Shown here piece after piece: positions 12,859-63,183 of a stretch of 64,000 nt of DNA. The stretch is from a virus. Below the pieces are notes generated by a model. The model was not told the origin of the DNA and ran no database searches. It was given only the letters and a program-made list of their open reading frames with translations. The stretch's first letter is position 1; the number at the start of each line of letters is the position of its first letter. Both the position numbers and the translations under genes were made by a program. Where the stretch lies: IMG/VR virus record IMGVR_UViG_3300035698_012408; one strand, written 5' to 3'.

Positions 12859-12861
12859 AGC

Positions 12862-15453: not shown

Positions 15454-15468
15454 GGCAACCTCCCTGCG

Positions 15469-19690: not shown

Positions 19691-20482
19691 TTACACCCCG
19701 TGCCGTTCATCGAGTTGCTCCTGAATCCGTGCTTTCCGCTGACTCACGGCTCCAGGTGAGATTCCGAGCCGCTCTGCGATTTCTCTGTTCTCCAGCACAG
19801 GGGAATTATGCTTACCCAGTGTGAAATCCAAAACCGCTTGATCAACAGGTCCAAGGTCCTGGTATACCATTTCTTCCCACATAACTCCAGCCACATCTGT
19901 GCCAGGAACCGTAGAAGCCGGTGAGTAAGGGGCTCCGGTCTCGTCTGTCAGCGAGCCAGTATTGACCCCGGGCTGCGCCTGCCGAACGTAGCCGATACGC
20001 TTCAATGATAGCCCCGTACTGGCGGCAATCTCCGCGTCACTCGGGTCACGCCCCAGATCCTCGCGTAGTCGCTCCTCGTCATCGACCAAATGCTGCCGAT
20101 CGAGTATGACACCCTCCGGGATGCCGATAATCTGCCTGGATTTCCCCTGAACTCGTTGCAATCCGCGGAGTTGCGACAGCAGATGCGTCTTCATCGTGCC
20201 CTGCTGTGGGTCATACGAATCGAAGGCCCGCAATGCCATGAGTCTTGCTTGACTCTTCGCATGTGGGCCGCCGGTTGGGGCGTACGAGTGGACTGCGGTG
20301 CTCAGGATCGGATCAACCGCTCGCAGCAACGCACCCCGCGTGGTGGCGTCTGGTTTCTTCTGCCACGCCGTAAATGCTTCCGTGTAGGGTTGTTCCATCC
20401 GCTGGTTCGCCGAAGCACCGCCACCGAACGGCATAGTGTCATCCAGCACGGATTTCGGCCTGTTTTTATATTCAGTCGGCAT
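19691..20482 (-). CDS. Sigma-70 family RNA polymerase sigma factor (regions 2, 3 and 4 recognisable)
   Basis: Start re-set to ATG 20482, with GGAGGAG 7 nt upstream and 1 nt after the upstream TAA. Region 2-like ARLMALRAFDSYDPQQGTMKTHLLSQLRG. Region 3-like LGRDPSDAEIAASTGLSLKRIGYV. Region 4 HTH NREIAERLGISPGAVSQRKARIQEQL. Confidence 0.75.
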   Translation of the reverse strand: MPTEYKNRPKSVLDDTMPFGGGASANQRMEQPYTEAFTAWQKKPDATTRGALLRAVDPILSTAVHSYAPTGGPHAKSQARLMALRAFDSYDPQQGTMKTHLLSQLRGLQRVQGKSRQIIGIPEGVILDRQHLVDDEERLREDLGRDPSDAEIAASTGLSLKRIGYVRQAQPGVNTGSLTDETGAPYSPASTVPGTDVAGVMWEEMVYQDLGPVDQAVLDFTLGKHNSPVLENREIAERLGISPGAVSQRKARIQEQLDERHGV

Positions 20483-20483
20483 A

Positions 20484-32866: not shown

Positions 32867-35812
32867 CTATACGACCAAGTGCAGCTCGATGTTGTTCAAC
32901 GGGTACGGGACAACGAGATCCACGATGATCACAACGCGATCCGCAGCAAGCGGATGGATGTAGATCATCGGTGCTTCCGTCTCCGGGTCCAAACGAATCG
33001 ACCCGCTGACCAGCTGCGCACCAAGTTCGGTCGTCACACCGTTGCTCTTGAGGAACTTGATCGTCTGGTTGACATGATACTCCAACGCGCGGAGCATCGT
33101 CGGCGTTGCATTGCTGCGACCGATGTACGGGCGGAGACGTCGCAGGAACAGGTAGGACATCGAGTCCACGTTCCGGCGAACCATCTCTTCCTTTCGATTC
33201 AGGTCGAGCATGTTGGTGGTCAACGCGTGTCGCGTATGCGGCGTGCCGTCACGGTCTTCCGTGCCGATCCACACACCACCCGCAGCGAGTTCGTCCAGCT
33301 GGCTGTCGCTGAAGTAATCACGGGTGCGAGACGACAGATCATCGAAACCAGCGATTTCGACGTTCGTCAGGCCCTGCTGCGGTACGACACCGGACGCGAG
33401 TCCAGCGAGAGCACAGCACAGGAAATAGCCATCTTGCGCGTTACCACCGGTACCGACAATGTCCGGCCACACCACACAGACGCGGCGATCCGCGAAGCTC
33501 TGGGCGATGTCGACGATCGCTTCGACGAGTTCTCCCTTTTCCTGGGTATGCCAGATTTCGATCTTCTGGGCAACCGAGATCGGGCTGCTGTGGCCGCTGA
33601 GCAGCAACAGCGAACTCTGGGAAAGCACGGTGTCCACGATAAACTCGCTGTACGACTGATTGCCGAACGCGTCAATCGTGTAGAGGAATCGCACAACATC
33701 ACCAGCTTCCACACCGTAGGTGATGAAACCAGCGTTGCTGTCCGGGACACTCAGCAGCGTGTACTGAATGGCCGTGGCATCCGGGTTGTCTTCCAACGTA
33801 GCCAGCACGACTTCGCCGTCGATGGACGTCGGAGTGAGAGCTTGCGTATCCGCATCGCTCTTTCCAACAACCATCTTCGTAGCAGGCGTCTTGGCGTTGA
33901 CGAACATCGCCTTCCAGTTGCCCGACTCCGCCGAGCTCTCGCTCGTGACGTGGGCCTGGAAGAGATTGTGAACCTCACGGGTATACGTGAGAGGCACGAA
34001 GTTGTAAAGGTCATCACGACCATCAACCCGTTCGAGCACGTCTTGCCAGCTGTCCAGATCGTCCGGGTCGGCGACGGCCGTGTAGGCCACCTTCGTACCG
34101 TTCGAGTTCTGGAGAGCACGGTAGACGCCCCACTTGAGCAGATTGAGCTCATCGAGCTGTCCGGGTATCTCGTCGATGTCGGCCACGTCGTCAATGAAAT
34201 TGACTTCGTCAGCCAGATCCGACAGCCATTCCCGATACTCGATGTACTGGATGCCCCACGAGTTCGGATCGGTGGTGCTGGCCAGTCGGCCATCCCACAC
34301 GGTCATCGGCTGTTCCACGCCGCTGTCCGTCCAATCGGCGTCGTAAGCCGTGATACCGGCCTTGACCGCCAACTGCGTCGATTCGATTTCGTAGTTGACC
34401 AGCGGGGGACTGCTGAGACGTGCTTCCGTGACTTCGATGGTCTTCGGAATGAAGAGTCGAAGATCCAGATCAGTTGCGCTCTGGATGGCGATCGGAAGAT
34501 CGTCTTGCAGGGTCAGCGTGCGGATCGGCCCGTTGGCTCCGCTAACGACCGAGACATAGAACTTATCGCCGGTCCGTAGACCTGCGAGGGAGCCGTCGCC
34601 GAGCGACACGCTGCTGGCACTGTCGATCGATTGCACACTGGAACCCTGGCAATCAACGAACTGAGCCGTGAGACCCCACGCACCGACGGGGAAGGCCACA
34701 CTGTCACTGGTGACCGTCGTCGGACCAGAGCTGTCCAATCCCTTGACCGTCGTGACGGTAACTTCGGGAAGGTCAGCCCACAAGCCACCCTTGGTGACTT
34801 CGACGACGTAAGTGTCAATGTCGGGACCTGCATAGCTGTCGTCGACAACTTCGAGACAGCCACGCTCGAACGCCTGGGTGGCGTCGATTTCCCACTTTTG
34901 ACCGACCACGAATTGGTCGCTCTCAACCGACTCCGAAGAAGCCGATAGCGAACAATCACCAGTCGTGGTGTTGAACTGCACTTCCAGCCCGCGGGTACCG
35001 ATCTCAACCCAGTCACCGAAGTCACCAGGATCAACCTCATCCACGTTGTCCGTGCCCGAGTCACTGACGATTCGCAGTCGCGCGGCTTGACAACCCGCGA
35101 TGGACGAACGAATGACTTCGACCTCGTACCGTTCGTTGACGTACCCGTCTTCCAGGCCGTCATAGTCGGCATTCGAGTTGGTGAGACCAACGCAGTTGAC
35201 GACACCATCGATTTGATCCGACGTAACAACCGCGGCGGTAGAGAGTTGGTTGTTGTCATCAACCGTGGCCGGGAACACGGTGGCAGCAACGGTATCGGCG
35301 GCAAAGCCGGTAACGGTGGTCCACAGGTCGTGCTCGTCACAGGCGCTGCCGACACCGGTCACGCCACGCACGTAGGCGACATCACCCACTTGCACGTCGC
35401 GGTCGAGGAACAGCCCGGAACGGGGCCATTGCGTGCCGTTAGCTTTGTAGCTGAGGGCCGAGGATCGAATCCAATTCTTCCGAGTGGAGACAGGCTGCAC
35501 AAGCCCGCGACCTTCAGAAGCATCGCCGATCAGGTCCTCATGGTACAGGAGCAGGGCGTCCTCGATCATGAGACGCACACTGGCCTCATCAACGAGTGAG
35601 CCAGCTTGACGTTCGGGCCACGGATAGACCGCGTCGTCATCTTTATCATACGGTCCGACGTTGATCAGGATCTTCTCGTCGTCCTCGTCGTAACGATGGA
35701 GCAACGCGTTCGGTCCCGAGATATGTGCTCGGAGCGGATCGGTCACCTCGTTGGGGACGATGCTAAATTCCTGAAAAACGAGAACCTGCGGTTTCACATA
35801 AGTGACAGACAT
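32867..35812 (-). CDS. Contractile tail sheath protein candidate (981 aa)
   Basis: Lies immediately upstream of the tube-sized gene. The C-terminal region LDLNRKEEMVRRNVDSMSYLFLRRLRPYIGRSNATPTMLRALEYHVNQTIKFL resembles the conserved sheath C-terminal domain. Confidence 0.55.
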   Translation of the reverse strand: MSVTYVKPQVLVFQEFSIVPNEVTDPLRAHISGPNALLHRYDEDDEKILINVGPYDKDDDAVYPWPERQAGSLVDEASVRLMIEDALLLYHEDLIGDASEGRGLVQPVSTRKNWIRSSALSYKANGTQWPRSGLFLDRDVQVGDVAYVRGVTGVGSACDEHDLWTTVTGFAADTVAATVFPATVDDNNQLSTAAVVTSDQIDGVVNCVGLTNSNADYDGLEDGYVNERYEVEVIRSSIAGCQAARLRIVSDSGTDNVDEVDPGDFGDWVEIGTRGLEVQFNTTTGDCSLSASSESVESDQFVVGQKWEIDATQAFERGCLEVVDDSYAGPDIDTYVVEVTKGGLWADLPEVTVTTVKGLDSSGPTTVTSDSVAFPVGAWGLTAQFVDCQGSSVQSIDSASSVSLGDGSLAGLRTGDKFYVSVVSGANGPIRTLTLQDDLPIAIQSATDLDLRLFIPKTIEVTEARLSSPPLVNYEIESTQLAVKAGITAYDADWTDSGVEQPMTVWDGRLASTTDPNSWGIQYIEYREWLSDLADEVNFIDDVADIDEIPGQLDELNLLKWGVYRALQNSNGTKVAYTAVADPDDLDSWQDVLERVDGRDDLYNFVPLTYTREVHNLFQAHVTSESSAESGNWKAMFVNAKTPATKMVVGKSDADTQALTPTSIDGEVVLATLEDNPDATAIQYTLLSVPDSNAGFITYGVEAGDVVRFLYTIDAFGNQSYSEFIVDTVLSQSSLLLLSGHSSPISVAQKIEIWHTQEKGELVEAIVDIAQSFADRRVCVVWPDIVGTGGNAQDGYFLCCALAGLASGVVPQQGLTNVEIAGFDDLSSRTRDYFSDSQLDELAAGGVWIGTEDRDGTPHTRHALTTNMLDLNRKEEMVRRNVDSMSYLFLRRLRPYIGRSNATPTMLRALEYHVNQTIKFLKSNGVTTELGAQLVSGSIRLDPETEAPMIYIHPLAADRVVIIVDLVVPYPLNNIELHLVV

Positions 35813-41892: not shown

Positions 41893-42822
41893 TTACGCGA
41901 AGTCGGCTCGGGCGATGCCACCGGCGTGTCCGATACTTCCACCCATCGTCTGATAGGCGAAGAATTCGAGCATGTACGCTTCACGACGAATGTACATGGT
42001 CGTATCTTCTAGCAGATACGACTTACCGATGAACTTGGGATCGGCGAACATGAACATCGAGTCGTCGGGGACCAGATCGCGCTTGATCGTGATGATCCAA
42101 CGCATGTTCATGAAGTTGGCTTCAGCCCAACCGTTCTTGATGACGTCCTGGGAGAAATCTCCGCCCATTTCGTCACGTCCAAACTTCTCGATCTCCTTGA
42201 TCGTCACGTTGTTGATCAGGCACGTATGCGATTCGAGATGACTCGGACCGCGCGGCATGATCTTACGGGCGTCTTGGAGGGTCTCACGGGTGATGCCACC
42301 TTCAATGGTTTCCCACTGAACGACATTGCCGTTGTACGGCACCGGGACGTCCGGGCCGATCATCAAAGCGTTGCACGCAGAGATGAATTTCGAGTCTTCT
42401 TCGGCTAGCATATCTTTGATGCTATTATCCGAAAGGACCTGTCGAATGTCCATGACCCATGTGCGAAGCTCGTCCACGTCCTTGACGAATCGAGGCGTGA
42501 CAATGCGGTCGAACATTACGCGGTAACGAGGACCACGAATGTAGACATTGACAGGCAACGTCGCGAACGGAATCGAGATCGCAGCCGGGGAATCCGGCTC
42601 TTTGTCGACGACTTTGACAGGCTTGTCGGTGTCGACTTGCCGGTCCAACTCGTCGTTGGAAATCTGGAGGGGTGGAAGAATTCGGCGGAAGAAGCCGTCC
42701 TCACGCATCTTGGTTCGCGTGAAGTCGTTGACGGCGTCAATCGCTTGCTTCTCCATCCCGGGAGTTTGCAGTTGCTCAAACAGTGTCTCGTTGAGCAGCT
42801 GGGTATCAGTTTGGGTTGCCAT
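41893..42822 (-). CDS. Major capsid protein candidate (HK97-fold class), ~309 aa
   Basis: The track start 42858 is a TTG. I prefer ATG 42822, with GGAGG 9 nt upstream. Supporting points are its size, its position after the protease/scaffold-like genes, and the strong terminator directly downstream. The fold was not verified. Confidence 0.5.
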   Translation of the reverse strand: MATQTDTQLLNETLFEQLQTPGMEKQAIDAVNDFTRTKMREDGFFRRILPPLQISNDELDRQVDTDKPVKVVDKEPDSPAAISIPFATLPVNVYIRGPRYRVMFDRIVTPRFVKDVDELRTWVMDIRQVLSDNSIKDMLAEEDSKFISACNALMIGPDVPVPYNGNVVQWETIEGGITRETLQDARKIMPRGPSHLESHTCLINNVTIKEIEKFGRDEMGGDFSQDVIKNGWAEANFMNMRWIITIKRDLVPDDSMFMFADPKFIGKSYLLEDTTMYIRREAYMLEFFAYQTMGGSIGHAGGIARADFA

Positions 42823-42907
42823 CGTAGCAAACCTCCGTGTTTTCGGGATGTCAGCCAATCATGGCCGATTGATTACAATGTACGCTCTGCTTTCGGAAGA
42901 CCACCTG

Positions 42908-51570: not shown

Positions 51571-54120
51571 TTAGATGTCCGCGGAGTCACCGAGATCAAT
51601 GTCTCTGGCGGACTCTTCGGGGTACGGTTCAATTGTCTTCTGCTTCAGGAAGAGCACGACGTCACCGACCATCTCGAACGCGTTGCGTAACGAGTCTTCG
51701 AGTTCGGGGAGGTCCTGCTTGCCGAAGCGGTCAGCGAACTGGTCGCTGTGCCAATAGAACATGAACAGGATACGGCCGAGTCGATCCATCCCCTTCACGA
51801 GGTCGGGAATATACCGATCGATCATTGTGTCGTCACGAACCGCTCTCAGCATGCTGCTGATCATGGCCGTGTCGAAGATCTCCTTCTGGCCGGTATCTGC
51901 CGCCTGCTGGACAGCATTGATGTCCATCGGGTCGGGCATGTTGTTCGGGTTCACGTTGTAGATGTTCGGGTCGGTCGCAGCCCCTTCCAATCCGGGCACC
52001 CCGACTTCTTCTTGATACGACGGCATCGTCGGGCCATCAAAGCCCATCGGATTGTAACCACCGCGATCCGGTTCTTGCATCGGCGGAGCGGTCGGGCCAC
52101 CACTGTCAGTCAGGTACGGATCAGCATACTTGATCCGGCAACGGAACGGTCCCGGTCGCAAGCTGCGGCACTCAACCTCCGCCTGCTTGAGCAGATGGCG
52201 GCTAATGTCTTCGCGGAGTCCGTGATCCCGCACCAGCTGAACCAACGCACCGACTTCGTTCTGGCCGGCACTCTTGTTGATATGAAACTGAGTTCCGTCG
52301 TGCCGAATCTCCAGAGCCGCTGTCTTGCGCATGATCAGGTTCTGGGCGTCCAGCAGGCTGCCCGGCTGGATCGGTTCGTTGTCGCTGTGGTCGTCGCTGC
52401 CGCCCACGGCGCAAGGCTGGGCACAGCAATCGTCATTGTCATCACGATGCTTTCGCTCCCAGCGATCCGAGGACGTCTCTTTGATCTTGAGGATCTTGTA
52501 GCCATCAGGGATGTAGAGATCGCCCATATTCGAGCGGAGCTGCGTACCCTTCTTCGCGTCGAAGTGGATACGGGCTCCATGATCCCAGCTGCAATACTTA
52601 TCGTAGCTGATGCCAATCTCGTGAGACTGCGAGTGATACTTGTCCAAACCCGTGGACAAGTAACCATGCTTATCCGCGTTCTCGGAGAAGGCCACATCGT
52701 ACGAGTCGTCCCCGATCTCCTTGTGGAGTGCGAACGTCGTCGTCGCGTTGCGCCGCGGCCCGACAGCGATATAGCGGTGCTTGTCGCTCATGGAGACGGA
52801 GCCCTCGGGAATGCCGTCAAACCATTCCATCCAGCTCTCTTCGCCGCCCAGGAGCCCTTCGTCGAGCTGGCCAGCGACCCAGACCGCGTCACGATCGGCG
52901 CTGGTCCAGTCCTTGGTGTCGAGATCGACAATCACGCAATGTGGTAGCCGCCCATCCGGGCCGTGCGGCTTCATCACGATCAGGCACTTCTTGAAGTCGT
53001 TCGGCTTCGCTAGGACCATGTAGATCCCGGTCTCGCTCGGATTGCTCAGCTTTTGTTCGACCTGGACGTTGTACGGTACCGATACTTCGTCGCCCGTCCG
53101 CTTGTCTTCGATCAGCACGTGTTCCTTGAGCAGCTTCTCGGCATCCTCTTCGTCCAGTCCTTCGGGAACGCCCTCTACCCAGGACGCGTCCATCGTGATG
53201 ATCACGACTTTGCCCTTAGCATCAGGCCCCTTGTCCCCGTCCGCCGCCTCTTTCTCCAACAGATCCATGACGGACCCGTTGCACGGCTGCGTTCGCGGTT
53301 CGGGCTGACGGTACGGGTCATCCAGGATCGAGCTGCGTCGCATTCGCACGCCCGCTTCCTTGACGGCTGCCTGGAGTTCGCCGACCCCGTGCCAGCGATC
53401 GAAAGCGGCCGCCAGGACGGGTTTACGTTGCAGCGTGTCCGCAAGGACCTGCAACATGGGCAGTCCGGCCTGCTTGATGAAATGCCCGAGATCGAGCCGC
53501 TCATGGCAGTGAGCCTCGAAATCTTCGATCGCCGAACCGAAGTCACTTACGCACATGTGGGCATACTTCGGCAAGAACGGCTGGACAGACGACGCGTACT
53601 TGTAGGGTGATTGGCTGAGCCGCGTCAGATCCGGCTGCATCACACCCAGTTCGGACGTGTTCTTGTCGACGCCGGAGCCGAGAATGTTTGGCCGCCGGTT
53701 GAGAATGTAGTTGAGCCAGTTTTCCTTCATGGGCACGAACATGTCTTGATTGCTGATATACAGCAATTCGTGGCCCTTGAGATCGCCCGATAGGAAGAAC
53801 ACCGGCGCGAACAGCTGGTGGGAACCGACCTTGAAGGCCATGACACCCACTGCTTTGGTGTTCTCCTCATTCCGGTCGAGCAGCTGGAACCCAAGCTCGT
53901 GATCGAGCAACGTGGGAGCCTTGTCACGCAAAAACGCATGCGCGAGATTGCTAAATGCTTGCTCGAATGGAACATCTTGACCATCACCACCAAGCTCCGC
54001 GACTTTGATCATGACACCTTGGTCGATCATAGCCTGTTGGCATTGACCGAGCCAATGTGCCGCTTCCGCGGGCATGGGTGTAGATTGATTAAGATTAACA
54101 GCAGGTTGTGCAGTCGTCAT
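51571..54120 (-). CDS. Large head-module protein (849 aa); portal candidate by size and position only
   Basis: First gene after the largest spacer, upstream of the protease/scaffold/capsid genes. Acidic C-terminus. I recognised no diagnostic motif. Confidence 0.3.
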   Translation of the reverse strand: MTTAQPAVNLNQSTPMPAEAAHWLGQCQQAMIDQGVMIKVAELGGDGQDVPFEQAFSNLAHAFLRDKAPTLLDHELGFQLLDRNEENTKAVGVMAFKVGSHQLFAPVFFLSGDLKGHELLYISNQDMFVPMKENWLNYILNRRPNILGSGVDKNTSELGVMQPDLTRLSQSPYKYASSVQPFLPKYAHMCVSDFGSAIEDFEAHCHERLDLGHFIKQAGLPMLQVLADTLQRKPVLAAAFDRWHGVGELQAAVKEAGVRMRRSSILDDPYRQPEPRTQPCNGSVMDLLEKEAADGDKGPDAKGKVVIITMDASWVEGVPEGLDEEDAEKLLKEHVLIEDKRTGDEVSVPYNVQVEQKLSNPSETGIYMVLAKPNDFKKCLIVMKPHGPDGRLPHCVIVDLDTKDWTSADRDAVWVAGQLDEGLLGGEESWMEWFDGIPEGSVSMSDKHRYIAVGPRRNATTTFALHKEIGDDSYDVAFSENADKHGYLSTGLDKYHSQSHEIGISYDKYCSWDHGARIHFDAKKGTQLRSNMGDLYIPDGYKILKIKETSSDRWERKHRDDNDDCCAQPCAVGGSDDHSDNEPIQPGSLLDAQNLIMRKTAALEIRHDGTQFHINKSAGQNEVGALVQLVRDHGLREDISRHLLKQAEVECRSLRPGPFRCRIKYADPYLTDSGGPTAPPMQEPDRGGYNPMGFDGPTMPSYQEEVGVPGLEGAATDPNIYNVNPNNMPDPMDINAVQQAADTGQKEIFDTAMISSMLRAVRDDTMIDRYIPDLVKGMDRLGRILFMFYWHSDQFADRFGKQDLPELEDSLRNAFEMVGDVVLFLKQKTIEPYPEESARDIDLGDSADI

Positions 54121-54240: not shown

Positions 54241-56142
54241 CTACTGCGTTGATTTACTGGTTGAATTATCTTGCCAACCCTGTGTCAAACCTTCTCGTCC
54301 GAAGCTCTCCCCACGTGCCAACGCTGGCACGTAACTACTGCCCGCTTCGTCTGAAACTGCCCCTCGTCGAGCACCTTCAAGCAGGCTATTCTTCTGGTAG
54401 CTTCCGAGCATCCGTGTCATCCAGTCCGGGTCGTGGGCGGCGTTGGCCATGCCCCTGATCATCTCTGGCTGGAATGGCGGCTGCTCATTATGCACCGTAA
54501 CACTCTTGACCCCGTAATTGGTCAAATCTGCTAGCATTGAAGGGCGAATCTGTGTACCGATGGAGTGATGCAGGATCGGCTGCTCCAGGTATTTACCCAC
54601 TGCCTGACCCGGCGGCAGCACCTGAAAACCATTCCGTGACTTCCAGTTGGATTCGACCAGCTGGTACGGCACCACATCATCCTGCACCCAGTCTCCCACC
54701 TCCTCGGTCAGCCGCACATGGTTGATTAACCCACGGGCCAACAGCTCAATGTTTCGTCGATCTCCGCTTGTCCCTGAGTCCTGCAAAACTTGTCGAAACG
54801 CGGACATGAGGTATCGACGACCCTCGCCAATCCCCTTGTGCTTCACGATTTCGCTCGGATTTGGTGTACCCTCGGAGAGCACGTCGCCGGCCTCCACGGT
54901 ATCACCGCGTTTCACCTTCAGCGGGAAACCACGAGCCACATAATGCTGCTCACTGCCGACATCTACGTAAGATCCACCCTGTGGGGCTTCGCGAATATCC
55001 GTGACTTTGCCATCATGTTGCGAGTGGGCTGCCCCACCTTGGAACGTCTTCGGGACCTGCACGAGCTGATTGATGTACTTGAACCCGGAAATTGCCCCGG
55101 CGCCAGCGGCTCCAGCGATCCCGCCGGTGTGCTTTGAGCTGATTTGGGCCTGCGTGATCGGTTCGGCAAGTGCCTGGGCGGCTGCGATACCCACATAGTC
55201 GCCGATCGGGGACAAACCGCCTCGTTCCCGGTGCCCGACGTCTCTTGCGTAGACACCGCCGTCTTTCGGGCCACCCACGATCGGGCTGCGTACCAGGATA
55301 TTCTCAACCCCTTCATCCTTCAACTCCCGCAGGATTTTCGGACTCAGTACGGTATTTCTGGCATACGGGCCGACAGGATGAGCCAATAAGGCCCCTTCAT
55401 TATCCATGTCGTCGGTGGATACTGCCAGCCCCCGTGGCTGCTCAATGTCATATTCGTCGTCGCTGTCGACACGAGACACGAGCAATCGATGGGCTGCCTG
55501 CACAAGCTGCTTTGCGAAGAAACCTGCGTCCTGCGTGGCCGATTTGACGTCAATTACGCCTTTTCTGGCCCCAAACGCTCCCGCGAAGTATTCGTGGGGT
55601 TTCAGCCCCATCGAATAGCTGCGGGTCACAGGGATCGGCAACACCCGCCCTCTGTGATCCGTGTATAACAAATCGGCTCCACGAAGGCTATTAAGATTAA
55701 ATTTGTTCCCTCGGGAGCCTGATATGGCTTGCTGGGCAAGCGGGTTTTGTTCTGCTTGGCTCTCTTCAAACACGTCATCTACGAGTCGCGTCTGATGTTC
55801 GCCAGTCACTTCTATGATTCGTTGCTCTTTTTGTTCCGTCGACAGCTTAGGGTCTGCATAAATAGTACGCAATTCCTTCCCAAGTTGCAACCGCATCTTA
55901 CGAGCTGCAAGACTTTGCCGCAAGGCCGATAGCCCAAATGAGTAGCCGCCTGTGGTAAAAGCAGCGTCTCGGCCGACGTCGGAAAGCTGCTTAGCGATGA
56001 CCCGATATTTGTCAGGATGATTCTTTGCGACCTCGGTCAGCAGGGCCTTTATACCCTTCTTATCAAGCACACGCTCATCATCCCGCAGTTCTGCGGGAAG
56101 CGAGCGATTGATCATGATTTGGCCGACAGTGGTCTTACGCAT
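54241..56142 (-). CDS. RNA polymerase beta' subunit, C-terminal half (633 aa)
   Basis: Begins MRKTTVGQIMINRSLP (beta' TT.GR.i.N..LP block). Also carries ISGSRGNKFNLNSLRG, a bridge-helix-like GAFGARKGVIDVKSATQDAGFFAKQLVQAAH, and a trigger-loop-like AQALAEPITQAQISSKHTGG. Confidence 0.8.
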   Translation of the reverse strand: MRKTTVGQIMINRSLPAELRDDERVLDKKGIKALLTEVAKNHPDKYRVIAKQLSDVGRDAAFTTGGYSFGLSALRQSLAARKMRLQLGKELRTIYADPKLSTEQKEQRIIEVTGEHQTRLVDDVFEESQAEQNPLAQQAISGSRGNKFNLNSLRGADLLYTDHRGRVLPIPVTRSYSMGLKPHEYFAGAFGARKGVIDVKSATQDAGFFAKQLVQAAHRLLVSRVDSDDEYDIEQPRGLAVSTDDMDNEGALLAHPVGPYARNTVLSPKILRELKDEGVENILVRSPIVGGPKDGGVYARDVGHRERGGLSPIGDYVGIAAAQALAEPITQAQISSKHTGGIAGAAGAGAISGFKYINQLVQVPKTFQGGAAHSQHDGKVTDIREAPQGGSYVDVGSEQHYVARGFPLKVKRGDTVEAGDVLSEGTPNPSEIVKHKGIGEGRRYLMSAFRQVLQDSGTSGDRRNIELLARGLINHVRLTEEVGDWVQDDVVPYQLVESNWKSRNGFQVLPPGQAVGKYLEQPILHHSIGTQIRPSMLADLTNYGVKSVTVHNEQPPFQPEMIRGMANAAHDPDWMTRMLGSYQKNSLLEGARRGAVSDEAGSSYVPALARGESFGREGLTQGWQDNSTSKSTQ

Positions 56143-56389
56143 TAAATCTTACATCCGGTAACGGTACTTGCCCGATCGATTGCACCATAACAGTCTTGTG
56201 CAGTCCCAGGCCATGCAAAAGCGACTGAAACTCCTGTTCCCGCCCCTCTTCCAAAGCTGAGGCTACTATCGTCCCTGGTTCCACCTCCACAGCAGCAACG
56301 ATCGGGTTGTCGTATCGATCATACACGACAACCCGCGTTACCTCAATACGCTGGGGATTACCCAGCTTGGTGTGAAACTCAACTATCAT
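56135..56389 (-). CDS. Hypothetical small protein (84 aa) inside the RNAP gene cluster
   Basis: ATGA overlap upstream and an 8-nt overlap (ATGCGTAA) with the beta' C-half start. Confidence 0.6.
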   Translation of the reverse strand: MIVEFHTKLGNPQRIEVTRVVVYDRYDNPIVAAVEVEPGTIVASALEEGREQEFQSLLHGLGLHKTVMVQSIGQVPLPDVRFNA

Positions 56390-57354
56390 TGTCGTCCTGC
56401 TGCTGTGCGACTGCGAAGCAAGGCGGCCACGGCGGTTGCACCTTGCATCGTCGTATGTCCTCGCATACCTTCCTCGAACGGCGTGCCGAGGGCCTGGGCG
56501 GTCTTGTTGACTGCACCCAGATCATCACCCGCCTCGGTTCGAGACAGCGGATCTTTTGAGCCGCCGGCCGAGATTGACTGCGTGGCAGGTCGACGTCCGG
56601 GATGCCCGCCAGGAAGCGGAGCCGGCGTCGAGCTCTCAGGTGGCACGCTGGCCATCTTGTCAATGAACTCGGAGAAAGAGTCTACTGCGGCACCCATCTT
56701 CTCGACAGGTGCTCCACCACCCCCGCCGCCAGCCGCCAATTCAGGCGACGCAGCTTGCATCGGATCAATGGCACCGATCGCACTACCGCCACCGCCGCCA
56801 CCGGCTGGGGCAGCGCCGCCAGCTTGTGATGGATCTTGTGGGCCGCCTTGCATCGCCGCTTCCGGCGCTGGTGTTGGCTGCCCTGGAGGCATGACGAGCA
56901 CGCCCGGGTCCAGCTTGATGTCCATCGCGTTCATCAGCGTGGTCATCTGTTGCTGCATGTTGTACATGCGGGTGTCGAGCATCTGCATGTACTGCTCTGG
57001 CTTCATCTTAGGAGGAACGCCACCGGCAGCCGCAGCAGGGTCAGTCGGGGGCATCCCGGGCGCCGGAGGCATGCCCGGAGGCATCCCACCCATCATCGCC
57101 GGGTCCATCCCAGGTGGCGGCATTCCGCCCATCATTGCCGGGTCCATCGGAGGAGCACCACCAGGAGGCATGCCGCCCATCATCGCCGGGTCCATCGGAG
57201 GAGCACCACCAGGAGGCATACCACCCATCATAGGATCGCCACCCGGCGGCATCGCGCCTTCAGGTGGAACCACGGCGGCCTTTTCCATCGGCGGCCCGCC
57301 AGCCTGCTCCCAGACCTTCTGCTGAGCCATTTTTAGTAGTACAGGATTCAACAT
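56386..57354 (-). CDS. Met/Pro/Gly-repeat protein (~322 aa) inside the RNAP gene cluster
   Basis: Start re-set to ATG 57354 (AAGGAGG 6 nt upstream); the track start 57684 overlaps the RNAP gene. Repeats GGMPPGGAPPMDPAMM. Confidence 0.65.
   Translation of the reverse strand: MLNPVLLKMAQQKVWEQAGGPPMEKAAVVPPEGAMPPGGDPMMGGMPPGGAPPMDPAMMGGMPPGGAPPMDPAMMGGMPPPGMDPAMMGGMPPGMPPAPGMPPTDPAAAAGGVPPKMKPEQYMQMLDTRMYNMQQQMTTLMNAMDIKLDPGVLVMPPGQPTPAPEAAMQGGPQDPSQAGGAAPAGGGGGGSAIGAIDPMQAASPELAAGGGGGGAPVEKMGAAVDSFSEFIDKMASVPPESSTPAPLPGGHPGRRPATQSISAGGSKDPLSRTEAGDDLGAVNKTAQALGTPFEEGMRGHTTMQGATAVAALLRSRTAAGRQ
57080..57240 (-). repeat. 48-bp coding tandem repeat (GGMPPGGAPPMDPAMM), two near-perfect plus degenerate copies
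   Basis: gcccatcat(t/c)gccgggtccatcggaggagcaccaccaggaggcat recurs with a 48-bp period. Confidence 0.75.
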
Positions 57355-57382
57355 CTTGTCCTCCTTAACGGTGTCTTGGCCG

Positions 57383-60300
57383 TTATTTGTCATCTTCGAC
57401 GATTTCGACCCTGCGGCCGACACCGATCTTACCTTGTTTATACGCTCTGATTGCGTCAGCCGTCGTGGCAAACACCGCAGCCGGCTTGTCTTCATCCACC
57501 CGTGCCGACGCTTCGTAGAGCCCGCCGACGTATTCCTGAGATGGCATATAGTGTACCCCGAAGTCCGCGGCAGACAATAGGTTTCTGGACGGGAGCATCT
57601 TTTCGAGGGCTTCATGTGCCTCTGCTTCCGTGGCCGGCACGTGATATTGCATCGCATCACCGTCAAAGTCAGCGTTGAAACCACTGACCACCAACGGACT
57701 TACCTTCAGCACGTCACCTTTCACCAGCTTCGGCCTAGCTGCCATCATACCATATCTGTGCAGCGTTGGCGCCCGATTGATTACGACGACGCCGTCTTGC
57801 ATCTCTTTGAGGAGCGCTTCCCGAGCGACCGGCGATCTCTCTTCAGCGGCACGGATGGCCTCACGACGGGACCATCCTTTGCGAACGAGCCGTCTGGTGA
57901 CGATGGGTTTGTAGATGCTCCAGGCTTGCTCTTCAGGAAGCCCAACTTGATCCATATCGAGGTCAGGGTCCGGCGCAATAACCGACCGCCCGACCATGTC
58001 GACGGCGCTGCCGAGCAATCGTCGCTGCACCATTCCGAGTTTTGGGGAAGTACCAAAGACATGTCGAAGAATTCCCTTAACCTTGCGTTCTTGGTTCTTC
58101 GGATGCGTCGGGTCGCCAAGGCCAGTCACCGCTCGAAACGCTTGATACAGCGCCAGCCGTTCATCGCCTATGTCCTCGTCATTGAGTAGCCCAGCCGCTT
58201 CCTTTAGGTTTTTGTTTGCATCCCATACTTCCTTGTATAGATAATTTGGATCAGCCACCAACGGCAGCTTTCTCTTACCCATCGTCGACACCGGGCGGAA
58301 GGCCGGCGGCAGCACGGGCACCTTCGACAGCAGCCAATCACGTGGGTGCATGCCAAGACGTTTCGCATCTTTCAGGTAGCCAAGCCGGCGAACCGCAGCA
58401 TCACGGGATGTGCGTTTGCCACTCTTGATCTCTTCTCGGGCTCTGGCCAGCTCGCCGTCGAGGTTCATGTTATCCAGGGCGGAGCCGACAGCCTTCGGAC
58501 CCGTGGCCCCGTTCAGCCGCTCTTTCCCGCTGAGCACGTCCTCAAACTTCTGTTTCGTTAGCCCCAACACTCGTCGAATCGGCTCTTCCATTACCGGGTT
58601 GGGTAACGGCTCATGCAGCCGAATGAAGCTCCACCGATTACCACCGCCTTCCGGCGTCATGTGGCCACCGGTGAGTGCTTGATCAAACAACCCGCCGCGA
58701 ACCGGCTCCATCGTCTTCCAGTCAACGGTTCCCACGTTCTGGAGCTCCCGGTTACCCGCGAGCTTGTCAATGTCGTCGTTGCGAAGTGCCATTATATGCG
58801 TCTGCGACCCATCGCGCACGACGTTGATACCGGCTGCCTTCAAATGCGACACATACTTCTGATACATGTGTGGCACCTTCGGCGTCGGCGGATTGTAGCC
58901 CGACATGTACTGAGCCCAATATTCAGGGCTGGCCTGTCCACGAATCATGTTACCGCTGCGTAGGAACTCTGTCGCTCCGTGGGACAGCAACGCTCCGACT
59001 TCCAGCATGCCGATTCGCTTGGCCCCTTCCGGGCCACCCTTGGCTGGTGTCTGATCCGCCGTGTAAGCTCCGAGTCCGCGACCCTGTCCTTTGGATTCGG
59101 CGGTATGGTGCAGCTTCATGAACCAGCGATTGCCGGTAAACACATCAGGTATCTTGCGACCAGTCTCCGAGTCCATGATCGTCTCGGTGTCCGCTATGCC
59201 GGCCTTCTTCAGCTCGGCCAACGCGTACTCCACGAGATCGTCTTCATCCTGGAAGTCAGGAACCTTGAACGCTTCGCCGCGGGCTGCCGCGATCTTCCCG
59301 AGAGCTGCCTCCACGATCTGGGCGGGATTGGTTCGACTGATCACACCGAGTGGGTTGAGCAGCACCTCGTACGGTTGCCCATCCTGATCCGACGGCATGT
59401 CGGCATCCGGGACGATGCGAGAGATGATACCCTTGTCGCCATACCGCCCGGACAGCTTGTCGCCGACCTCCATCGGGGCAATGGACTTCACCACCACAGC
59501 TGATCCGCCATCGTCATCCACGACGTCCGTAACCATGCCTGGAGTGTGATGATCCCACGTGACAGTCTGATTAAGGTAACCGGGTGAACGGCCACGCAGC
59601 ATTGATTTACGATTTCGTTCTCGTTCCCTCGCCACGAGGATCAGCGGATCACCGCTCTTTACCTCTGTGCCGGGGCGAATGAATCCGTTATCGTCGAAGT
59701 TCTCCAGCATGGCTTTGTCATAGGCGGCGGGGAATACCGAAATGAATGCGTTCTTTCCGCGTTGATCCTTGCCGTCCCACTCGTACCCATGCTGGTACAT
59801 GTGCTCCGAGCTCATCTTTTTGGCGAATGACTCTGAGATGACGTTGGCGTCCTCGAAGTTGAGCCCTCCGAAGGGGACGTACGCGACGCGGGCGTTCCGG
59901 CCGAGCGCTGACACGCCTTGCATGTCCGTGAAGTTCGACCGAGCGAGCAACTGCCCTTCTTCGACAGTTTCACCAACCTGGACCGTTGGCGTGTTGTGGA
60001 TGAAGGTTTTTCGATTGTAGGGGAAGTTGTCGTAGAGAGGGATTTCTTCCGTGCCGCCGCCCTCTTTCGTAACCGTGATACTATCTCGATCGACAGCGGC
60101 AACACGACCACGACCAGGACTGTCCCACCTAACAGCACCCATGTGCTTAGAGTATTCATCTTCAAAACTCCGACCGGGTTGTCCGGGGACGCCACTCTGC
60201 ACCAGCGGGGCTTCTGCACCTACGACGGGCAATGCCTGCGTCAACATGCGAGCGGCCATCACCGCGCGTTGTCCCTTGACCATTGATTTCAACGGGATCA

Positions 60301-61828
60301 TATTACCGAGCGGGGAGAACGTGCTCTCCATGTCGGGAATCTCATAATCCACCGTGTTGCGTGGCACCATGCGGACCTTGCCACTCTTCAACACCGGCAC
60401 CAACGCCTTGGGGTCGCGTTTCCCGCCACCTGGAAATGCTATCACGGCATCTGCCAAGTCCTGAGGACTTCGATATACGGTCTCACCAGTCTTAGTATCC
60501 ACCACTGGGGTGTAGACACGTCCGTCGTCACCCTTTCGCGCGGCACTTGCCATCCTCGCATCGACGCCTACCTTCCCGCTCTCTGGCGTGCGTAGAAAAT
60601 CCACAAAGCCAAACTGCGTTGGCTGCACTGCCCGAGCTTCGTCTGGTACTGCGTCCAAACTTGGGATACCACCTTCACCCATCCGCGTTACGCGGGAGTG
60701 CTGGTCGAAAATGTCTGCCGGATTGATCTCTTCCAGGGGGATACCCAGGCCGCTGCTCATGAGTGCGGCTTGAATCACGTCGTTGTAGGCTCCAGTCGGC
60801 ATCCGCTCAAGATCACCACGCCCCGAGGCCTTCCACAACAGCCTCTGCGTGACGCTACGCGCCTTGCCGAGCCGTTCCGCGAACAAGTCCTCCGGTCCCA
60901 TCATGGACTGGTAGGCCATCGAATCACGATCGTCAGGCTCTGCTTCGCCGCGAGACACGGCCAACAGCTTGCGAGTGACCGCCAGCAGCGTATCCGGCCC
61001 GACGTTCTCGAACGGTTCGCCGAGTGTCCGCTTCGTCACCTCGGGGTCCAGCGACATGGCCATGAAGGCCTCGGCAACGCGAGCCTTCTGCTCTATGGAG
61101 CTGCCTTCGCCGTCCTTGAACAGCTTGGAGTGTAGCTTGCGGATGACGGCGGGGTCATCCTTCTGGGCGTTCGTGTAAGTGAGATCATTGCCCCAGGCTT
61201 CCCGCAGCTGCGTGTCCGTCACCCCTTGGGCCCGCAAGAGCGGGAGGAGCGGCATCCTTGCCTGCCCCATTTGAATGCGGAATATCCCGCTCTGTGGGTC
61301 AAGGAATATTCGGTGACTGAAGCCCTTCTTCACGTTGACGTGGCTTTCCAGTTCACCATTGTCTTTCATGCGAGTGAACACACCCGGACGCAGTCGCATC
61401 TGGTGTGCCATCGTGTATTCGTTCCCGTTGACAACAAAAGTCCCGCGATCAGTCATCCACGGGATCTTGGCAACCGTGGCCTTCTTCCGCCCCAGTTCTG
61501 CTCCTTCCGCATCAGACAGCACCCACGTGCCACGCAGCGGCCGCGATAGACTTTTTCGCGATAGAATAGCCTTCTTTTGTTCGGCGATGGAGAAGCTCTC
61601 GGGGCCGTGGTACGCCACGTCCGTCAACGCGAGAGTATGCCGGGGGTTGGACACGGGTTCGATAGCTTGGGCGGCCGCCAACGCGTTGGCAAACAGACGT
61701 TTGCGAGTACCCGGTGTGTCACCGAACTTGCGATACGCGGGCGTAGCTTCCTCTTTGTCAGCCACGGGAGGAGCGAGGCTGGCATCAGGACCAAGTACCG
61801 ACTGAGAAATTAAACTGTCGTTAGCCAT
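57383..61828 (-). CDS. RNA polymerase beta subunit fused in frame to the N-terminal half of beta'
   Basis: Beta blocks: IPWMTDRGTFVVNGNEY, MGEGGIPSLD, SGRYGDKGIISRIVPDADMP...DGQPYEVLLNPLGVISRTNPAQ, FMKLHHTAESKGQGRG, KRIGMLEVGAL. Beta' blocks follow in the same frame: VPVLPPAFRP, INRAPTLHRYGMMAARP, and NADFDGDAMQYHVP (NADFDGD at 57656-57676). I chose ATG 61828, which makes an 8-nt overlap (ATGGCTAA) with the upstream stop. 61849 and 61870 are alternative starts. Confidence 0.85.
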   Translation of the reverse strand: MANDSLISQSVLGPDASLAPPVADKEEATPAYRKFGDTPGTRKRLFANALAAAQAIEPVSNPRHTLALTDVAYHGPESFSIAEQKKAILSRKSLSRPLRGTWVLSDAEGAELGRKKATVAKIPWMTDRGTFVVNGNEYTMAHQMRLRPGVFTRMKDNGELESHVNVKKGFSHRIFLDPQSGIFRIQMGQARMPLLPLLRAQGVTDTQLREAWGNDLTYTNAQKDDPAVIRKLHSKLFKDGEGSSIEQKARVAEAFMAMSLDPEVTKRTLGEPFENVGPDTLLAVTRKLLAVSRGEAEPDDRDSMAYQSMMGPEDLFAERLGKARSVTQRLLWKASGRGDLERMPTGAYNDVIQAALMSSGLGIPLEEINPADIFDQHSRVTRMGEGGIPSLDAVPDEARAVQPTQFGFVDFLRTPESGKVGVDARMASAARKGDDGRVYTPVVDTKTGETVYRSPQDLADAVIAFPGGGKRDPKALVPVLKSGKVRMVPRNTVDYEIPDMESTFSPLGNMIPLKSMVKGQRAVMAARMLTQALPVVGAEAPLVQSGVPGQPGRSFEDEYSKHMGAVRWDSPGRGRVAAVDRDSITVTKEGGGTEEIPLYDNFPYNRKTFIHNTPTVQVGETVEEGQLLARSNFTDMQGVSALGRNARVAYVPFGGLNFEDANVISESFAKKMSSEHMYQHGYEWDGKDQRGKNAFISVFPAAYDKAMLENFDDNGFIRPGTEVKSGDPLILVARERERNRKSMLRGRSPGYLNQTVTWDHHTPGMVTDVVDDDGGSAVVVKSIAPMEVGDKLSGRYGDKGIISRIVPDADMPSDQDGQPYEVLLNPLGVISRTNPAQIVEAALGKIAAARGEAFKVPDFQDEDDLVEYALAELKKAGIADTETIMDSETGRKIPDVFTGNRWFMKLHHTAESKGQGRGLGAYTADQTPAKGGPEGAKRIGMLEVGALLSHGATEFLRSGNMIRGQASPEYWAQYMSGYNPPTPKVPHMYQKYVSHLKAAGINVVRDGSQTHIMALRNDDIDKLAGNRELQNVGTVDWKTMEPVRGGLFDQALTGGHMTPEGGGNRWSFIRLHEPLPNPVMEEPIRRVLGLTKQKFEDVLSGKERLNGATGPKAVGSALDNMNLDGELARAREEIKSGKRTSRDAAVRRLGYLKDAKRLGMHPRDWLLSKVPVLPPAFRPVSTMGKRKLPLVADPNYLYKEVWDANKNLKEAAGLLNDEDIGDERLALYQAFRAVTGLGDPTHPKNQERKVKGILRHVFGTSPKLGMVQRRLLGSAVDMVGRSVIAPDPDLDMDQVGLPEEQAWSIYKPIVTRRLVRKGWSRREAIRAAEERSPVAREALLKEMQDGVVVINRAPTLHRYGMMAARPKLVKGDVLKVSPLVVSGFNADFDGDAMQYHVPATEAEAHEALEKMLPSRNLLSAADFGVHYMPSQEYVGGLYEASARVDEDKPAAVFATTADAIRAYKQGKIGVGRRVEIVEDDK

Positions 61829-62810
61829 ATTGCAGTTCGTCCGCCTCATCGTCTTTGCTGGTCGGGGCATGCGTCACGGTTGTGTAGATCGGTGCTGGAG
61901 CCTTAGCAGCCCGCTGCCGTTCGCGTAACCGCATCGCCCGGTTCATTATCTCCTGCTTACTCCGGCCTGTCGTGTAGTTGTACGTGGCCAGTCCTGTGCC
62001 GCCGGCAAGTAATGCCATCGCAGCCACTAACGCACCCTTACTGCCTTGCACGTTGTCATGCCCAAACGGCGAATACATCGTGTTGAAAATATCATTAAGA
62101 CCATAAGCGAGCTTTTCACGCATGTCGCCGCCTTCCATAGCGGCAACCCGGTCATAGAGGTCATCGATACCTAATGCGTCTCCCGCGTGCTTCGCCTGCA
62201 TGGCCTGTCGATACTGCGACGCCAACGCCTTCTGGTAGTCGGCTTTCGCGTCTGTTACCTCACCTTCCTCAGTGGACTCTCGCTCGCGATCGAGCAGCCA
62301 GTCAGTGAGCTTCCAGCCGCCGTACAGACCGCCACCAGCCATGCCGATACCTGCCGTAGTTCCCCACCAATCACCCAACGGTGATGCCGTCGAGATGTTG
62401 GGCAGCATTTGCGCGAGAGAGTTCCACCACGGGGGTTTCGCGGCAGGTCCGGCGGAGCGTTTCTCACGCTCTTCATCCCTTCCGTGGATCGTGACGGGCG
62501 GCGGGGCAACATGATGAGATACCGGCGACTGGGTGTCATGTACTAGATCATTAACGCCCACCAACGCACGAGCGCCGCCGCCGAATGCTGCACCTAGACC
62601 AGCCAACCGCATGAGCTGCTTGAAGGCTTCACGTTTTGCATTTTGCTGTGCCACATGCGACGTATAAGACGGCCCAGTCAGATCAACGAAAGCCGTTTTC
62701 TCCTGCAAAGCCGCGGGCTCTTGCGAAGCCGTCTTCGCCTTCGTAGCTTGGGCGTACAGCCCCGAAAGTCCCTTCGGTGACCGCTGCTGTTGCTGTCGTT
62801 GCTTGACCAT
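61821..62810 (-). CDS. Gly-zipper membrane-helix protein (~329 aa)
   Basis: Start re-set to ATG 62810, with GGAGG 5 nt upstream. Segments AGLGAAFGGGARALVGV, TTAGIGMAGGGLYGGW and ALVAAMALLAGGTGLA. Confidence 0.6.
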   Translation of the reverse strand: MVKQRQQQQRSPKGLSGLYAQATKAKTASQEPAALQEKTAFVDLTGPSYTSHVAQQNAKREAFKQLMRLAGLGAAFGGGARALVGVNDLVHDTQSPVSHHVAPPPVTIHGRDEEREKRSAGPAAKPPWWNSLAQMLPNISTASPLGDWWGTTAGIGMAGGGLYGGWKLTDWLLDRERESTEEGEVTDAKADYQKALASQYRQAMQAKHAGDALGIDDLYDRVAAMEGGDMREKLAYGLNDIFNTMYSPFGHDNVQGSKGALVAAMALLAGGTGLATYNYTTGRSKQEIMNRAMRLRERQRAAKAPAPIYTTVTHAPTSKDDEADELQYG

Positions 62811-63183
62811 AACCCCCTCCTGGGTGTTTACCGCTAGGCGTCTCTCCGTAGATCTGGACCCATTCCAGCCATACGAGCAGCCCGCACTGTGCATCTGCCC
62901 AACGATCGATACGCTTATGCAGCATGTACCAACCGTTTACAATACGATCCATGATCTCTTCAAATTCGGTCTTCTCGTCGGGAACCCACAACTTGAATTG
63001 CTTGGAATGGTAATCGAGAGCAAGTTTCACCTGCTCTTCGTATTCATCCTGTCGCAAATCAGGAACGACGGGGCCCCGGTGTGGGAACCCCTCTGCTGTT
63101 CCTGGCCAATGCAAGGAGCCGCCGTGGCCTGTAGACTCGCCACCGCGCTCCTCAAAAAACTTCGCCATGCTGCCGTTGGGCAT
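62683..63183 (-). CDS. Hypothetical protein (166 aa)
   Basis: ATG at 63183 with GAGG 7 nt upstream. Its last ~42 codons overlap the next gene out of frame. Confidence 0.6.
   Translation of the reverse strand: MPNGSMAKFFEERGGESTGHGGSLHWPGTAEGFPHRGPVVPDLRQDEYEEQVKLALDYHSKQFKLWVPDEKTEFEEIMDRIVNGWYMLHKRIDRWADAQCGLLVWLEWVQIYGETPSGKHPGGGYGQATTATAAVTEGTFGAVRPSYEGEDGFARARGFAGENGFR

Follow-up and report, generated by a model that had tools for sequence, protein, structure and literature searches.

What kind of RNA polymerase (RNAP) does a tailed phage encode when the two largest subunits of this enzyme are at once fused and split? This question is raised by the IMG/VR virus record IMGVR_UViG_3300035698_012408, of which a stretch of 64,000 nucleotides (hereafter, the window) was analyzed. 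On one strand of the window, a long gene encodes β followed in frame by the N-terminal part of β′ (β-β′N fusion), and a second, separate gene encodes the rest of β′ (β′C) (Table 1). The best explanation, which we consider probable as a whole, is that the two polypeptides constitute the core of a bacterial-type RNAP which would depend on a σ factor, would not require α, and would probably be packaged in virions.

The long open reading frame (ORF) was confirmed to encode β and then β′ in one frame, through the DxDGD motif. Pfam profiles located (in 1495-aa numbering) Rpb2_3 at residues 379-444, RNA_pol_Rpb2_6 at residues 618-938 (E 1.7e-52), Rpb1_1 at residues 1173-1243 and Rpb1_2 at residues 1287-1423 (E 1.8e-26). 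Consistently, phmmer searches of the PDB matched residues ~110-1045 with bacterial β chains and residues ~1097-1491 with β′ chains, the latter corresponding to residues 164-540 of B. subtilis β′; a weak additional match aligned 'ELQNVGTVDWKTMEPVRGGLFDQALTG' of the fusion with the β′ N-terminus. A first-pass annotation, made from the nucleotide sequence alone, had read the β blocks as continuing into β′ without a stop and had suggested profile searches as a check. Both Rpb2-type and Rpb1-type domains are indeed placed in the 57383..61828 product, the NADFDGD block is found at 57656-57676 as announced, and alignment puts the β/β′ junction at nt ~58754-58837, where it had been located. Concerning the start codon, the evidence favors ATG 61828 (1481 aa) over the alternative upstream ATG at 61870 (1495 aa), since the former overlaps the stop codon of the upstream gene (ATGGCTAA) and was called in all four independent whole-gene assemblies.

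A frameshift artefact, a concern raised together with the initial prediction, is excluded as far as possible without reads: the 7630-nt region was recovered with 0 mismatches and 0 gaps in four other assemblies (two from JGI and two from ENA), none of which has an indel or a stop between β and β′. Among them is a contig of 215,361 bp; a Logan assembly spans part of the region. Among the 80 loci listed as matches in a scan of IMG/VR, at least 55 carry β→β′N as a single uninterrupted ORF of 1444-1546 codons (31-73% identity), and the same single ORF is kept at 31-79% identity across contig and protein collections. The identity of the assemblies and the conservation of the open frame across relatives thus establish that the fusion is not an artefact. 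The opposite explanation, i.e., a sequencing or assembly error, or a contig corresponding to a bacterial rpoBC locus rather than to a phage, could invoke the relatives deposited inside bacterial metagenome-assembled genomes (MAGs). However, besides the assemblies and the conserved frame, it has to face 1) the 100% peptide coverage of the fusion protein of Salmonella phage Arash, as given in the Arash report (PMC10585845), 2) the synteny of the window with the capsid, sheath and other structural genes of Arash and 3) the lack of the ribosomal-protein or nusG neighbors present at true bacterial rpoBC loci. Its likelihood is practically negligible.

The family itself is extensive. In a protein collection, 1116 matches were obtained at E<=1e-20, and the best 120 of these 1116 all contain PF00562 and PF00623; among representatives at 50% identity, the best 150 matches to a junction-spanning fragment all had E<1e-205. 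Judged by these comparisons, the clade is large, comprising no fewer than 150 clusters (50% identity), and the layout is common to hundreds of related phages. No near-identical DNA was found among GenBank phages, and a bacterial genome search returned nothing but contigs mis-binned into MAGs, without any indication of a prophage in isolates.

Several database records of the clade or of its search results are misleading as to their origin. Clade contigs have been deposited inside MAGs (L091-L093 and L098) assigned to Aquaspirillum sp., a Thermoguttaceae bacterium and an 'uncultured bacterium', the Thermoguttaceae MAG, from goat duodenum, containing a 183-kb clade contig, and one NCBI protein of the clade is labeled Betaproteobacteria. 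These MAG deposits are binning artefacts and not host assignments. Conversely, several phage-filed records among H5-H17 (e.g., OR844998.1, OR846602.1, AGRM01000005.1 and CAKLQF020000005.1) are bacterial chromosome fragments, in which an ordinary rpoB-rpoC locus is accompanied by nusG and genes for ribosomal proteins.

Alignment with RpoB from Salmonella, Acinetobacter, Staphylococcus and Enterococcus delineated the β portion, in which the double-psi barrel region and the Rpb2_6 domain of a bacterial-type core are present. The active-site motif is kept in the form GDK..GR.GDKG, the reference motif with its two active-site lysines being GDK..GR.GNKG. Compared with E. coli, the rifampicin pocket shows the changes Q513→I, D516→E, H526→Q and S531→T. 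E. coli SI1 and SI2 are absent from β, as is SI3 from β′, in agreement with the earlier remark that both parts are shorter than their bacterial counterparts. At the junction, ~28 N-terminal residues of β′ are deleted, and the last conserved β block is separated by ~13 residues from the equivalent of E. coli β′ residue ~29. In an AlphaFold model of fusion residues 880-1481 (mean predicted local distance difference test score, pLDDT, 77.5), the junction blocks form a hairpin and a helix (pLDDT 67-96), and the best Foldseek matches of the β′N model are cyanobacterial and plastid γ (RpoC1) and bacterial β′. The fusion takes in the N-terminal 40% of β′, to a point ~90 residues beyond the active-site DxDGD block, D-[FY]-DGD being found in 51/51 family members.

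The Asn residue of the NADFDGD block (window 57674-57676), which is otherwise invariant, is kept in the window and is replaced by Gly in 35/51 and by Ala in 3/51 family members (column in L003-L082). Its E. coli counterpart contacts the ribose of the incoming nucleoside triphosphate, and sugar selectivity may therefore be altered in much of the clade.

The rest of β′ is encoded, as the first-pass annotation had proposed, by the separate 633-aa gene, whose assignment is supported by the Rpb1_5 profile and by PDB matches. These align β′C with M. tuberculosis β′ from residue 663 on, including the TTVGQ block, the bridge helix and the trigger loop, and the C-terminal conserved region of β′ is kept. 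In most relatives, β′C lies ~960-980 nt downstream of the fusion. The break, which occupies one and the same alignment column in Arash, Vibrio phage D69 and the window clade, falls at a bacterial hairpin (E. coli ~548-573) which is deleted in the phage lineage. Three distant homologues (L063, L069 and L075, 31-33% identical) encode a single continuous β-β′ protein of 2012-2078 aa; these complete fusions run through the break region as ...AVSIHGNRICAGQIIFNQAFP, whereas in the window the first polypeptide terminates with ...RVEIVEDDK* and the second one begins with MRKTTVGQIMINRSLP. In a rough neighbor-joining tree including four bacterial outgroups, the phage proteins were monophyletic with respect to bacteria, and the window clade grouped with L044 and L057 with 100% bootstrap. 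The order of the four deep phage lineages (including Arash/D69, L063/L075 and L069) received only 24-45% bootstrap; for this reason, the complete fusion is not claimed to be ancestral.

The two parts of β′ might in principle be joined post-translationally by a split intein, leading to one complete β-β′ chain. Relatives of the window are rich in inteins, some with an apparent split intein at query residue 950, and the three relatives mentioned above encode such a complete chain. Yet ...RVEIVEDDK and MRKTTVGQ abut the complete-fusion sequence column for column, the break shows neither a surplus of N-intein or C-intein sequence nor a catalytic Cys/Ser/Thr context, and the two Arash products have separate spectral counts and peptide coverage in the Arash report (PMC10585845). 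Since no spare sequence is available for intein halves, a split intein was ruled out as the cause of the break, and trans-splicing of β′N to β′C deserves hardly any credence.

No intein is present in the RNAP genes of the window. In many homologues, in-frame and stop-free inserts of 340-400 aa interrupt conserved RNAP motifs, as in L036 (11180-12211), L055 (~11270-12349 and ~13469-14539), L043 (~11843-13030) and L072 (~14870-15961), with boundaries such as RTPE|C...GN|SGKVG, GDKL|C...SGN|CGRYGDKG and SPKFG|C...SGN|TVQRR. Pfam matches to LAGLIDADG and intein families were obtained for long homologues in the databases (as long as 3350 aa and matched in up to 6 stretches), and these inserts are inteins. 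At query residue 950 (1495-aa numbering; GMLEVGALLSHGA motif), L053 (12725-15057), L054 (12731-13550) and L056 (12797-13555) contain an insert which starts like an intein N-half (G|CF.G.TE...), continues with stop codons and ends like a C-half (...AAGIVVSN|S). From its sequence, this insert resembles an intein that is either split or disrupted; trans-splicing would be needed to restore the β-β′N protein. The inteins of the clade form a natural collection of insertion-tolerant sites in RNAP.

Is this architecture without precedent? The first-pass annotation had stated that known precedents cover single aspects only, which proved incorrect: Arash, Vibrio phages D69, D148 and D181 and hundreds of metagenomic contigs combine fusion and split. 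The architecture is already in GenBank and IMG records, labeled only 'β subunit'. In Arash (OQ632216; PMC10585845), the same β-β′N ORF (gp206, 1525 aa) is accompanied by a separate β′C (gp216, 606 aa), with the break at the same column. Arash also shares with the window the deletion of the zinc ribbon, the lack of α and ω, the position in the structural module and a syntenic σ gene. The two systems differ in sequence (31% identity for the fusion and 25% for β′C), in the second zinc site, which Arash keeps (4 Cys) unlike the window, and in the active-site block, AADYDGD in Arash and NADFDGD in the window. In addition, Arash β′C is located 4.8 kb downstream behind opposite-strand genes, whereas in the window two same-strand genes intervene, encoding a Pro/Gly/Met-rich and an 84-aa protein, no homologue of either being found within the 22-kb stretches that surround the RNAP genes in Arash and D69. 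The published annotation of Arash reads only 'subunit beta' and 'beta′' and the fusion is not mentioned (PMC10585845). A search of the full-text literature, whose coverage excludes subscription journals, yielded no publication in which the fusion or the split is described.

Fusions of rpoB and rpoC occur in Helicobacter and Wolbachia, in cellular enzymes having an unsplit β′, α2 and ω. As in the phage fusion, the C-terminus of β is covalently joined there to the N-terminus of β′, and the complete fusions of L063, L069 and L075 are the closer phage analogues. In the rpoC1-rpoC2 (γ/β′) split of cyanobacteria and plastids, β′ is likewise broken behind its barrel, within the same surface region. 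The phage break is situated ~20-25 residues N-terminal of the rpoC1/rpoC2 boundary, residue 24 of β′C aligning with residue 6 of RpoC2, and the phage split is probably independent in origin. The layout of the window is a Helicobacter/Wolbachia-like fusion combined with a cyanobacterium-like β′ split.

Phage RNAPs of the phiKZ/AR9 type have in common with the window enzyme β/β′ homologues without α and ω, a β′ split after the catalytic double-psi β-barrel, at the same general site, and the packaging of one of their forms. In contrast, these enzymes comprise 4-5 polypeptides, with β divided as well and not joined to β′, while in the window one uninterrupted β runs into β′N. In place of a σ70-family factor they have gp68/gp226, and their genes occur in two paralogous sets, whereas the window has a σ70-family gene. 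In PHROG searches, phiKZ-like families scored from 1e-30 to 1e-5, compared with 1e-69 and 1e-57 for the families of unsplit β and β′. The unsplit β, the presence of σ, the much closer sequence relationship to bacteria and the top sequence and fold matches, which are to bacterial, cyanobacterial and plastid subunits, support that the enzyme is of bacterial type and not of phiKZ type. Bacterial-like β and β′ beside structural genes have been described in metagenomic Caudovirales, the mReC phages, whose GC content is ~30-42% (Weinheimer and Aylward, 2020, PMC7481178). All contigs examined in the list given there encode separate, unsplit β (1000-1487 aa) and β′ (887-1391 aa); 12 sample identifiers of fusion loci, looked up in this list, indicated no fused gene, and the paper mentions neither fusion nor split in these enzymes (PMC7481178). 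Membership of the window in the mReC clade is ruled out by architecture, i.e., a fused and split enzyme versus separate full-length genes in the contigs examined. The 'Moraphage' paper (PMC12619734) was also discarded, those phages having no RNAP.

The enzyme is further distinguished by its zinc sites and cysteine content. The cysteines of the N-terminal β′ zinc ribbon (E. coli C70/C72/C85/C88), earlier reported as missing in the window, are absent from the aligned family as a whole, a Gly-rich loop of 5-11 residues without Cys occupying this position in 51/51 unique members. Arash, D69, L063, L069 and L075 have kept the second β′ zinc site (E. coli C814/C888/C895/C898), but in the window and throughout its clade none of the corresponding positions carries a Cys. 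Both polypeptides of the window are Cys-free; in the clade (~1470 + 626 aa), nearly all members have 0 Cys and a few have one. With the 1.29% Cys averaged by the other window ORFs, the naive expectation for the enzyme would be 27. The family-wide deletion of the zinc ribbon, the loss of the second site in the window clade and an essentially Cys-free clade enzyme are new here.

Cysteine is also lacking in the window σ, in the two proteins encoded between the RNAP genes and in a 1402-aa protein, for which no family match was obtained. Cys-free ORFs of the window include 23396-27604(-), 27606-28148(-), 22109-22903(-), 14809-15453(-) and 19691-20524(-), while neighboring proteins contain 1-6% Cys. 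The lack of Cys may mark proteins held in the capsid or ejected.

Which partners would complete this core? Of 48 window ORFs scanned with Pfam, none matched an α or ω family (RNA_pol_A_bac, RNA_pol_L or Rpb6), the only families found in these ORFs being GIY-YIG, Baseplate_J, Sigma70_r3, Sigma70_r4, Sigma70_r4_2 and three generic helix-turn-helix families. Similarly, phmmer searches with E. coli RpoA and RpoZ against the window and the whole Arash genome returned nothing at E<=10 (β′ positive control, 1e-47), and no α or ω is annotated in the Arash genome. The statement that the window contains no α or ω homologue thus held in both searches. The 84-aa protein was examined as an ω analogue: it has no Rpb6 match, a word-index homologue search returned only itself, and such a role is unlikely.

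A candidate σ factor gave a Sigma70_r3 match above the gathering score (E 1.2e-7), r4 and r4_2 matches at ~1e-4, and weak PDB matches, all to σ factors. It is the syntenic counterpart of Arash gp10 (tblastn, E 7e-10; collinear neighbors), and its product is likely the specificity subunit. Of the σ docking sites, the clamp helices can be aligned with those of bacterial β′. A scan for σ70-type promoters and terminators between 54 and 64 kb found sites no more numerous than in shuffled sequence.

Bacterial RNAP assembles in the order α2→α2β→α2ββ′, and natural and engineered β-β′ fusions are functional. A hybrid enzyme has nevertheless to be considered, in which the two phage polypeptides would associate with host α2 (and ω, possibly also host σ) and would not be α-independent. 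While the subunits are much nearer to bacterial β/β′ than phiKZ-type subunits are, which is in line with such a hybrid, a packaged enzyme could carry host α only if α were packaged too, the β-β′ tether removes the main need for an α platform, and the α-less phiKZ/AR9 enzymes offer a precedent. We regard the hybrid as improbable.

The virion association of the window enzyme, raised as a possibility in the first-pass annotation, is indirectly supported by Arash. In its particle preparations, Gp206 accounted for 3516 spectra, the most of any protein, Gp216 for 1210, σ Gp10 for 467 and the major capsid protein for 1333, the three RNAP-related products ranking among the most abundant proteins (PMC10585845). 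By analogy with these three homologues, the window enzyme is probably virion-associated, and the Arash authors suggested a function in early transcription (PMC10585845). Alternatively, the enzyme could be a purely intracellular, non-virion RNAP dedicated to middle or late genes, the Arash signal being contamination by a very abundant protein. The Arash particle list includes ribonucleotide reductase, RNA ligases, deoxynucleoside monophosphate kinase and pyrophosphatase, the authors themselves raising contamination (PMC10585845), and Arash has a single RNAP gene set, so that the same enzyme must serve late transcription too. This alternative does not readily account for Gp206 exceeding the major capsid protein in spectra, nor for the location of the RNAP genes within the structural module in both phages. 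Moreover, σ Gp10, found in particles, has 0 Cys, as has the window σ, whereas gp196, the second annotated σ of Arash (3 Cys), does not appear in the accessible particle list (PMC10585845). A non-virion enzyme is thus unlikely, although it retains some weight. One RNAP gene set together with two σ genes hints that temporal control in Arash occurs by σ switching and not by two polymerases.

For the favored explanation, a packaged, σ-dependent and α-independent enzyme made of two polypeptides, the following mechanism can be proposed. The covalent β-β′ link would take on the role of the α dimer as an assembly platform, and the phage σ, bound to the retained clamp helices, would recognize promoters. 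The holoenzyme, packaged in the capsid and delivered with the DNA, would then transcribe early genes without any need for the host RNAP. Its Cys-free and zinc-free state could be an adaptation to the extracellular particle and to refolding after ejection. Several points weigh against this explanation. Virion proteomics is known for Arash only, whose fusion is distant from that of the window (31% identical), and Arash particles also held metabolic enzymes, the authors allowing for carry-over of abundant proteins (PMC10585845). The flap-tip helix, which is the docking site of σ region 4, is shortened and diverged, and the absence of α is deduced from sequence searches of the 64-kb window and one complete relative. 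Bacterial β contains 3-7 Cys and β′ 10-15, most of the latter presumably zinc ligands; the Cys depletion is therefore less extreme than the expected 27 suggests, bacterial β/β′ being also Cys-poor outside the zinc sites. Finally, the assembly of the two polypeptides, their activity, the use of the phage σ and the independence from host α are predictions.

A more far-reaching proposal, put forward tentatively as a possibility somewhat short of an even chance, is that of a minimal, self-sufficient and σ-dependent RNAP of two polypeptides without α, ω, zinc or Cys, in which the tether would replace the α platform and whose holoenzyme, with its Cys-free σ, would reside in the capsid and be injected to start infection. 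If true, it would add to the phiKZ-type and crAss-type enzymes a third, independently evolved multisubunit RNAP of virions, and the first one to use a σ70-family factor.

Multisubunit RNAPs from phages serve to explore how little of the cellular enzyme is needed, and those well studied so far belong to the phiKZ/AR9 type, multiply split and without σ, and to the crAss type. The present clade offers a far more bacteria-like enzyme, without α, ω and the N-terminal zinc ribbon, which appears to be paired with a recognizable σ. It could be used to test whether a β-β′ link substitutes for the α platform, whether the zinc sites are needed and how a σ-holoenzyme survives packaging and ejection. Cultured members of the clade make such experiments feasible.

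The RNAP genes belong to a packed operon, in the order upstream gene, fusion (ATG 61828), Pro/Gly/Met-rich gene, 84-aa gene, β′C and 849-aa gene, and this cassette is conserved across the window clade. The fusion gene is translationally coupled to the upstream gene. The Pro/Gly/Met-rich gene starts at ATG 57354 behind a strong ribosome-binding site (AAGGAGG); its product contains repeats of MMGGMPPGGAPPMDPA and has same-position homologues in 57 loci, with a core (residues ~111-171) that is 55-67% identical. The start of the 84-aa gene overlaps the stop of the Pro/Gly/Met-rich gene, and its stop overlaps the start of β′C (ATGCGTAA). A single-sequence AlphaFold model of the 84-aa protein, mostly β-strands, was too poor for use (pLDDT 49.5). 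The 849-aa gene follows β′C after ~120 nt, and the C-terminus of its product resembles the Arash structural protein gp218. No Pfam or PHROG match was obtained for the 357-aa, Pro/Gly/Met-rich, 84-aa and 849-aa proteins and other neighbors.

Table 1. Features of the RNAP locus and related genes in the window (position 1 is the first nucleotide of the window; residue numbers of the fusion refer to the 1481-aa form).
Feature	Coordinates	Strand	Properties and basis
β-β′N fusion gene	57383..61828	-	1481 aa, 0 Cys; ORF, Pfam and PDB matches
β portion, residues 1 to ~1005	58814..61828	-	alignment with bacterial RpoB
Rifampicin-pocket region, non-canonical residues	60668-60766	-	alignment
Shortened flap tip	59576-59626	-	alignment
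β active-site motif GDKLSGRYGDKG	59429-59464	-	aligns with E. coli 1060-1075
β/β′ junction, ...AAGINVVRDGSQTHIMALRNDDIDKLAG...	58754..58837	-	alignment
β′N portion, residues 1019-1481, ending ...RVEIVEDDK	57386..58774	-	alignment
Zinc-ribbon replacement loop TGGHMTPEGGGNRW	58631-58672	-	alignment
Clamp helices	58121-58249	-	alignment with bacterial β′
NADFDGD	57656-57676	-	β′ DxDGD Mg-binding motif
β′C gene	54241..56142	-	633 aa, 0 Cys; starts MRKTTVGQ; Pfam Rpb1_5
Bridge helix in β′C	55489-55599	-	alignment
Trigger loop without SI3 in β′C	55057-55200	-	alignment
Second zinc-site positions, now without Cys	55447-55476 and 55228-55293	-	alignment
σ70-family factor	19691..20524	-	277 aa, 0 Cys; Pfam, PDB, Arash gp10 synteny
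Upstream gene	61821..62894	-	called 295 aa in other assemblies; Gly-rich, hydrophobic segments; context only
Intervening gene 1, Pro/Gly/Met-rich, low complexity	56386..57354	-	322 aa, 0 Cys
Intervening gene 2	56135..56389	-	84 aa, 0 Cys; homologues in 31 loci
849-aa protein downstream of β′C	51571..54120	-	66 loci, 34-54% identity; context only
Major capsid protein homologue	41893..42858		window structural module
Tail sheath homologue	32867..35812		window structural module

The window is syntenic with the structural module of Arash (capsid gp226, gp222, gp218, gp233, gp236 and gp14), and PHROG matches to major head and tail sheath proteins were weak. The RNAP genes, first described as lying beside head genes, are situated inside this virion-structural module, which also contains the major capsid and sheath homologues; the gp218-like protein is encoded directly downstream. 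The phage is an uncultured myovirus of about 215 kb. A GIY-YIG protein of the window (12127-12858(-), E 6e-13), in which 15/243 residues are Cys, is probably a homing endonuclease in the tail/baseplate region.

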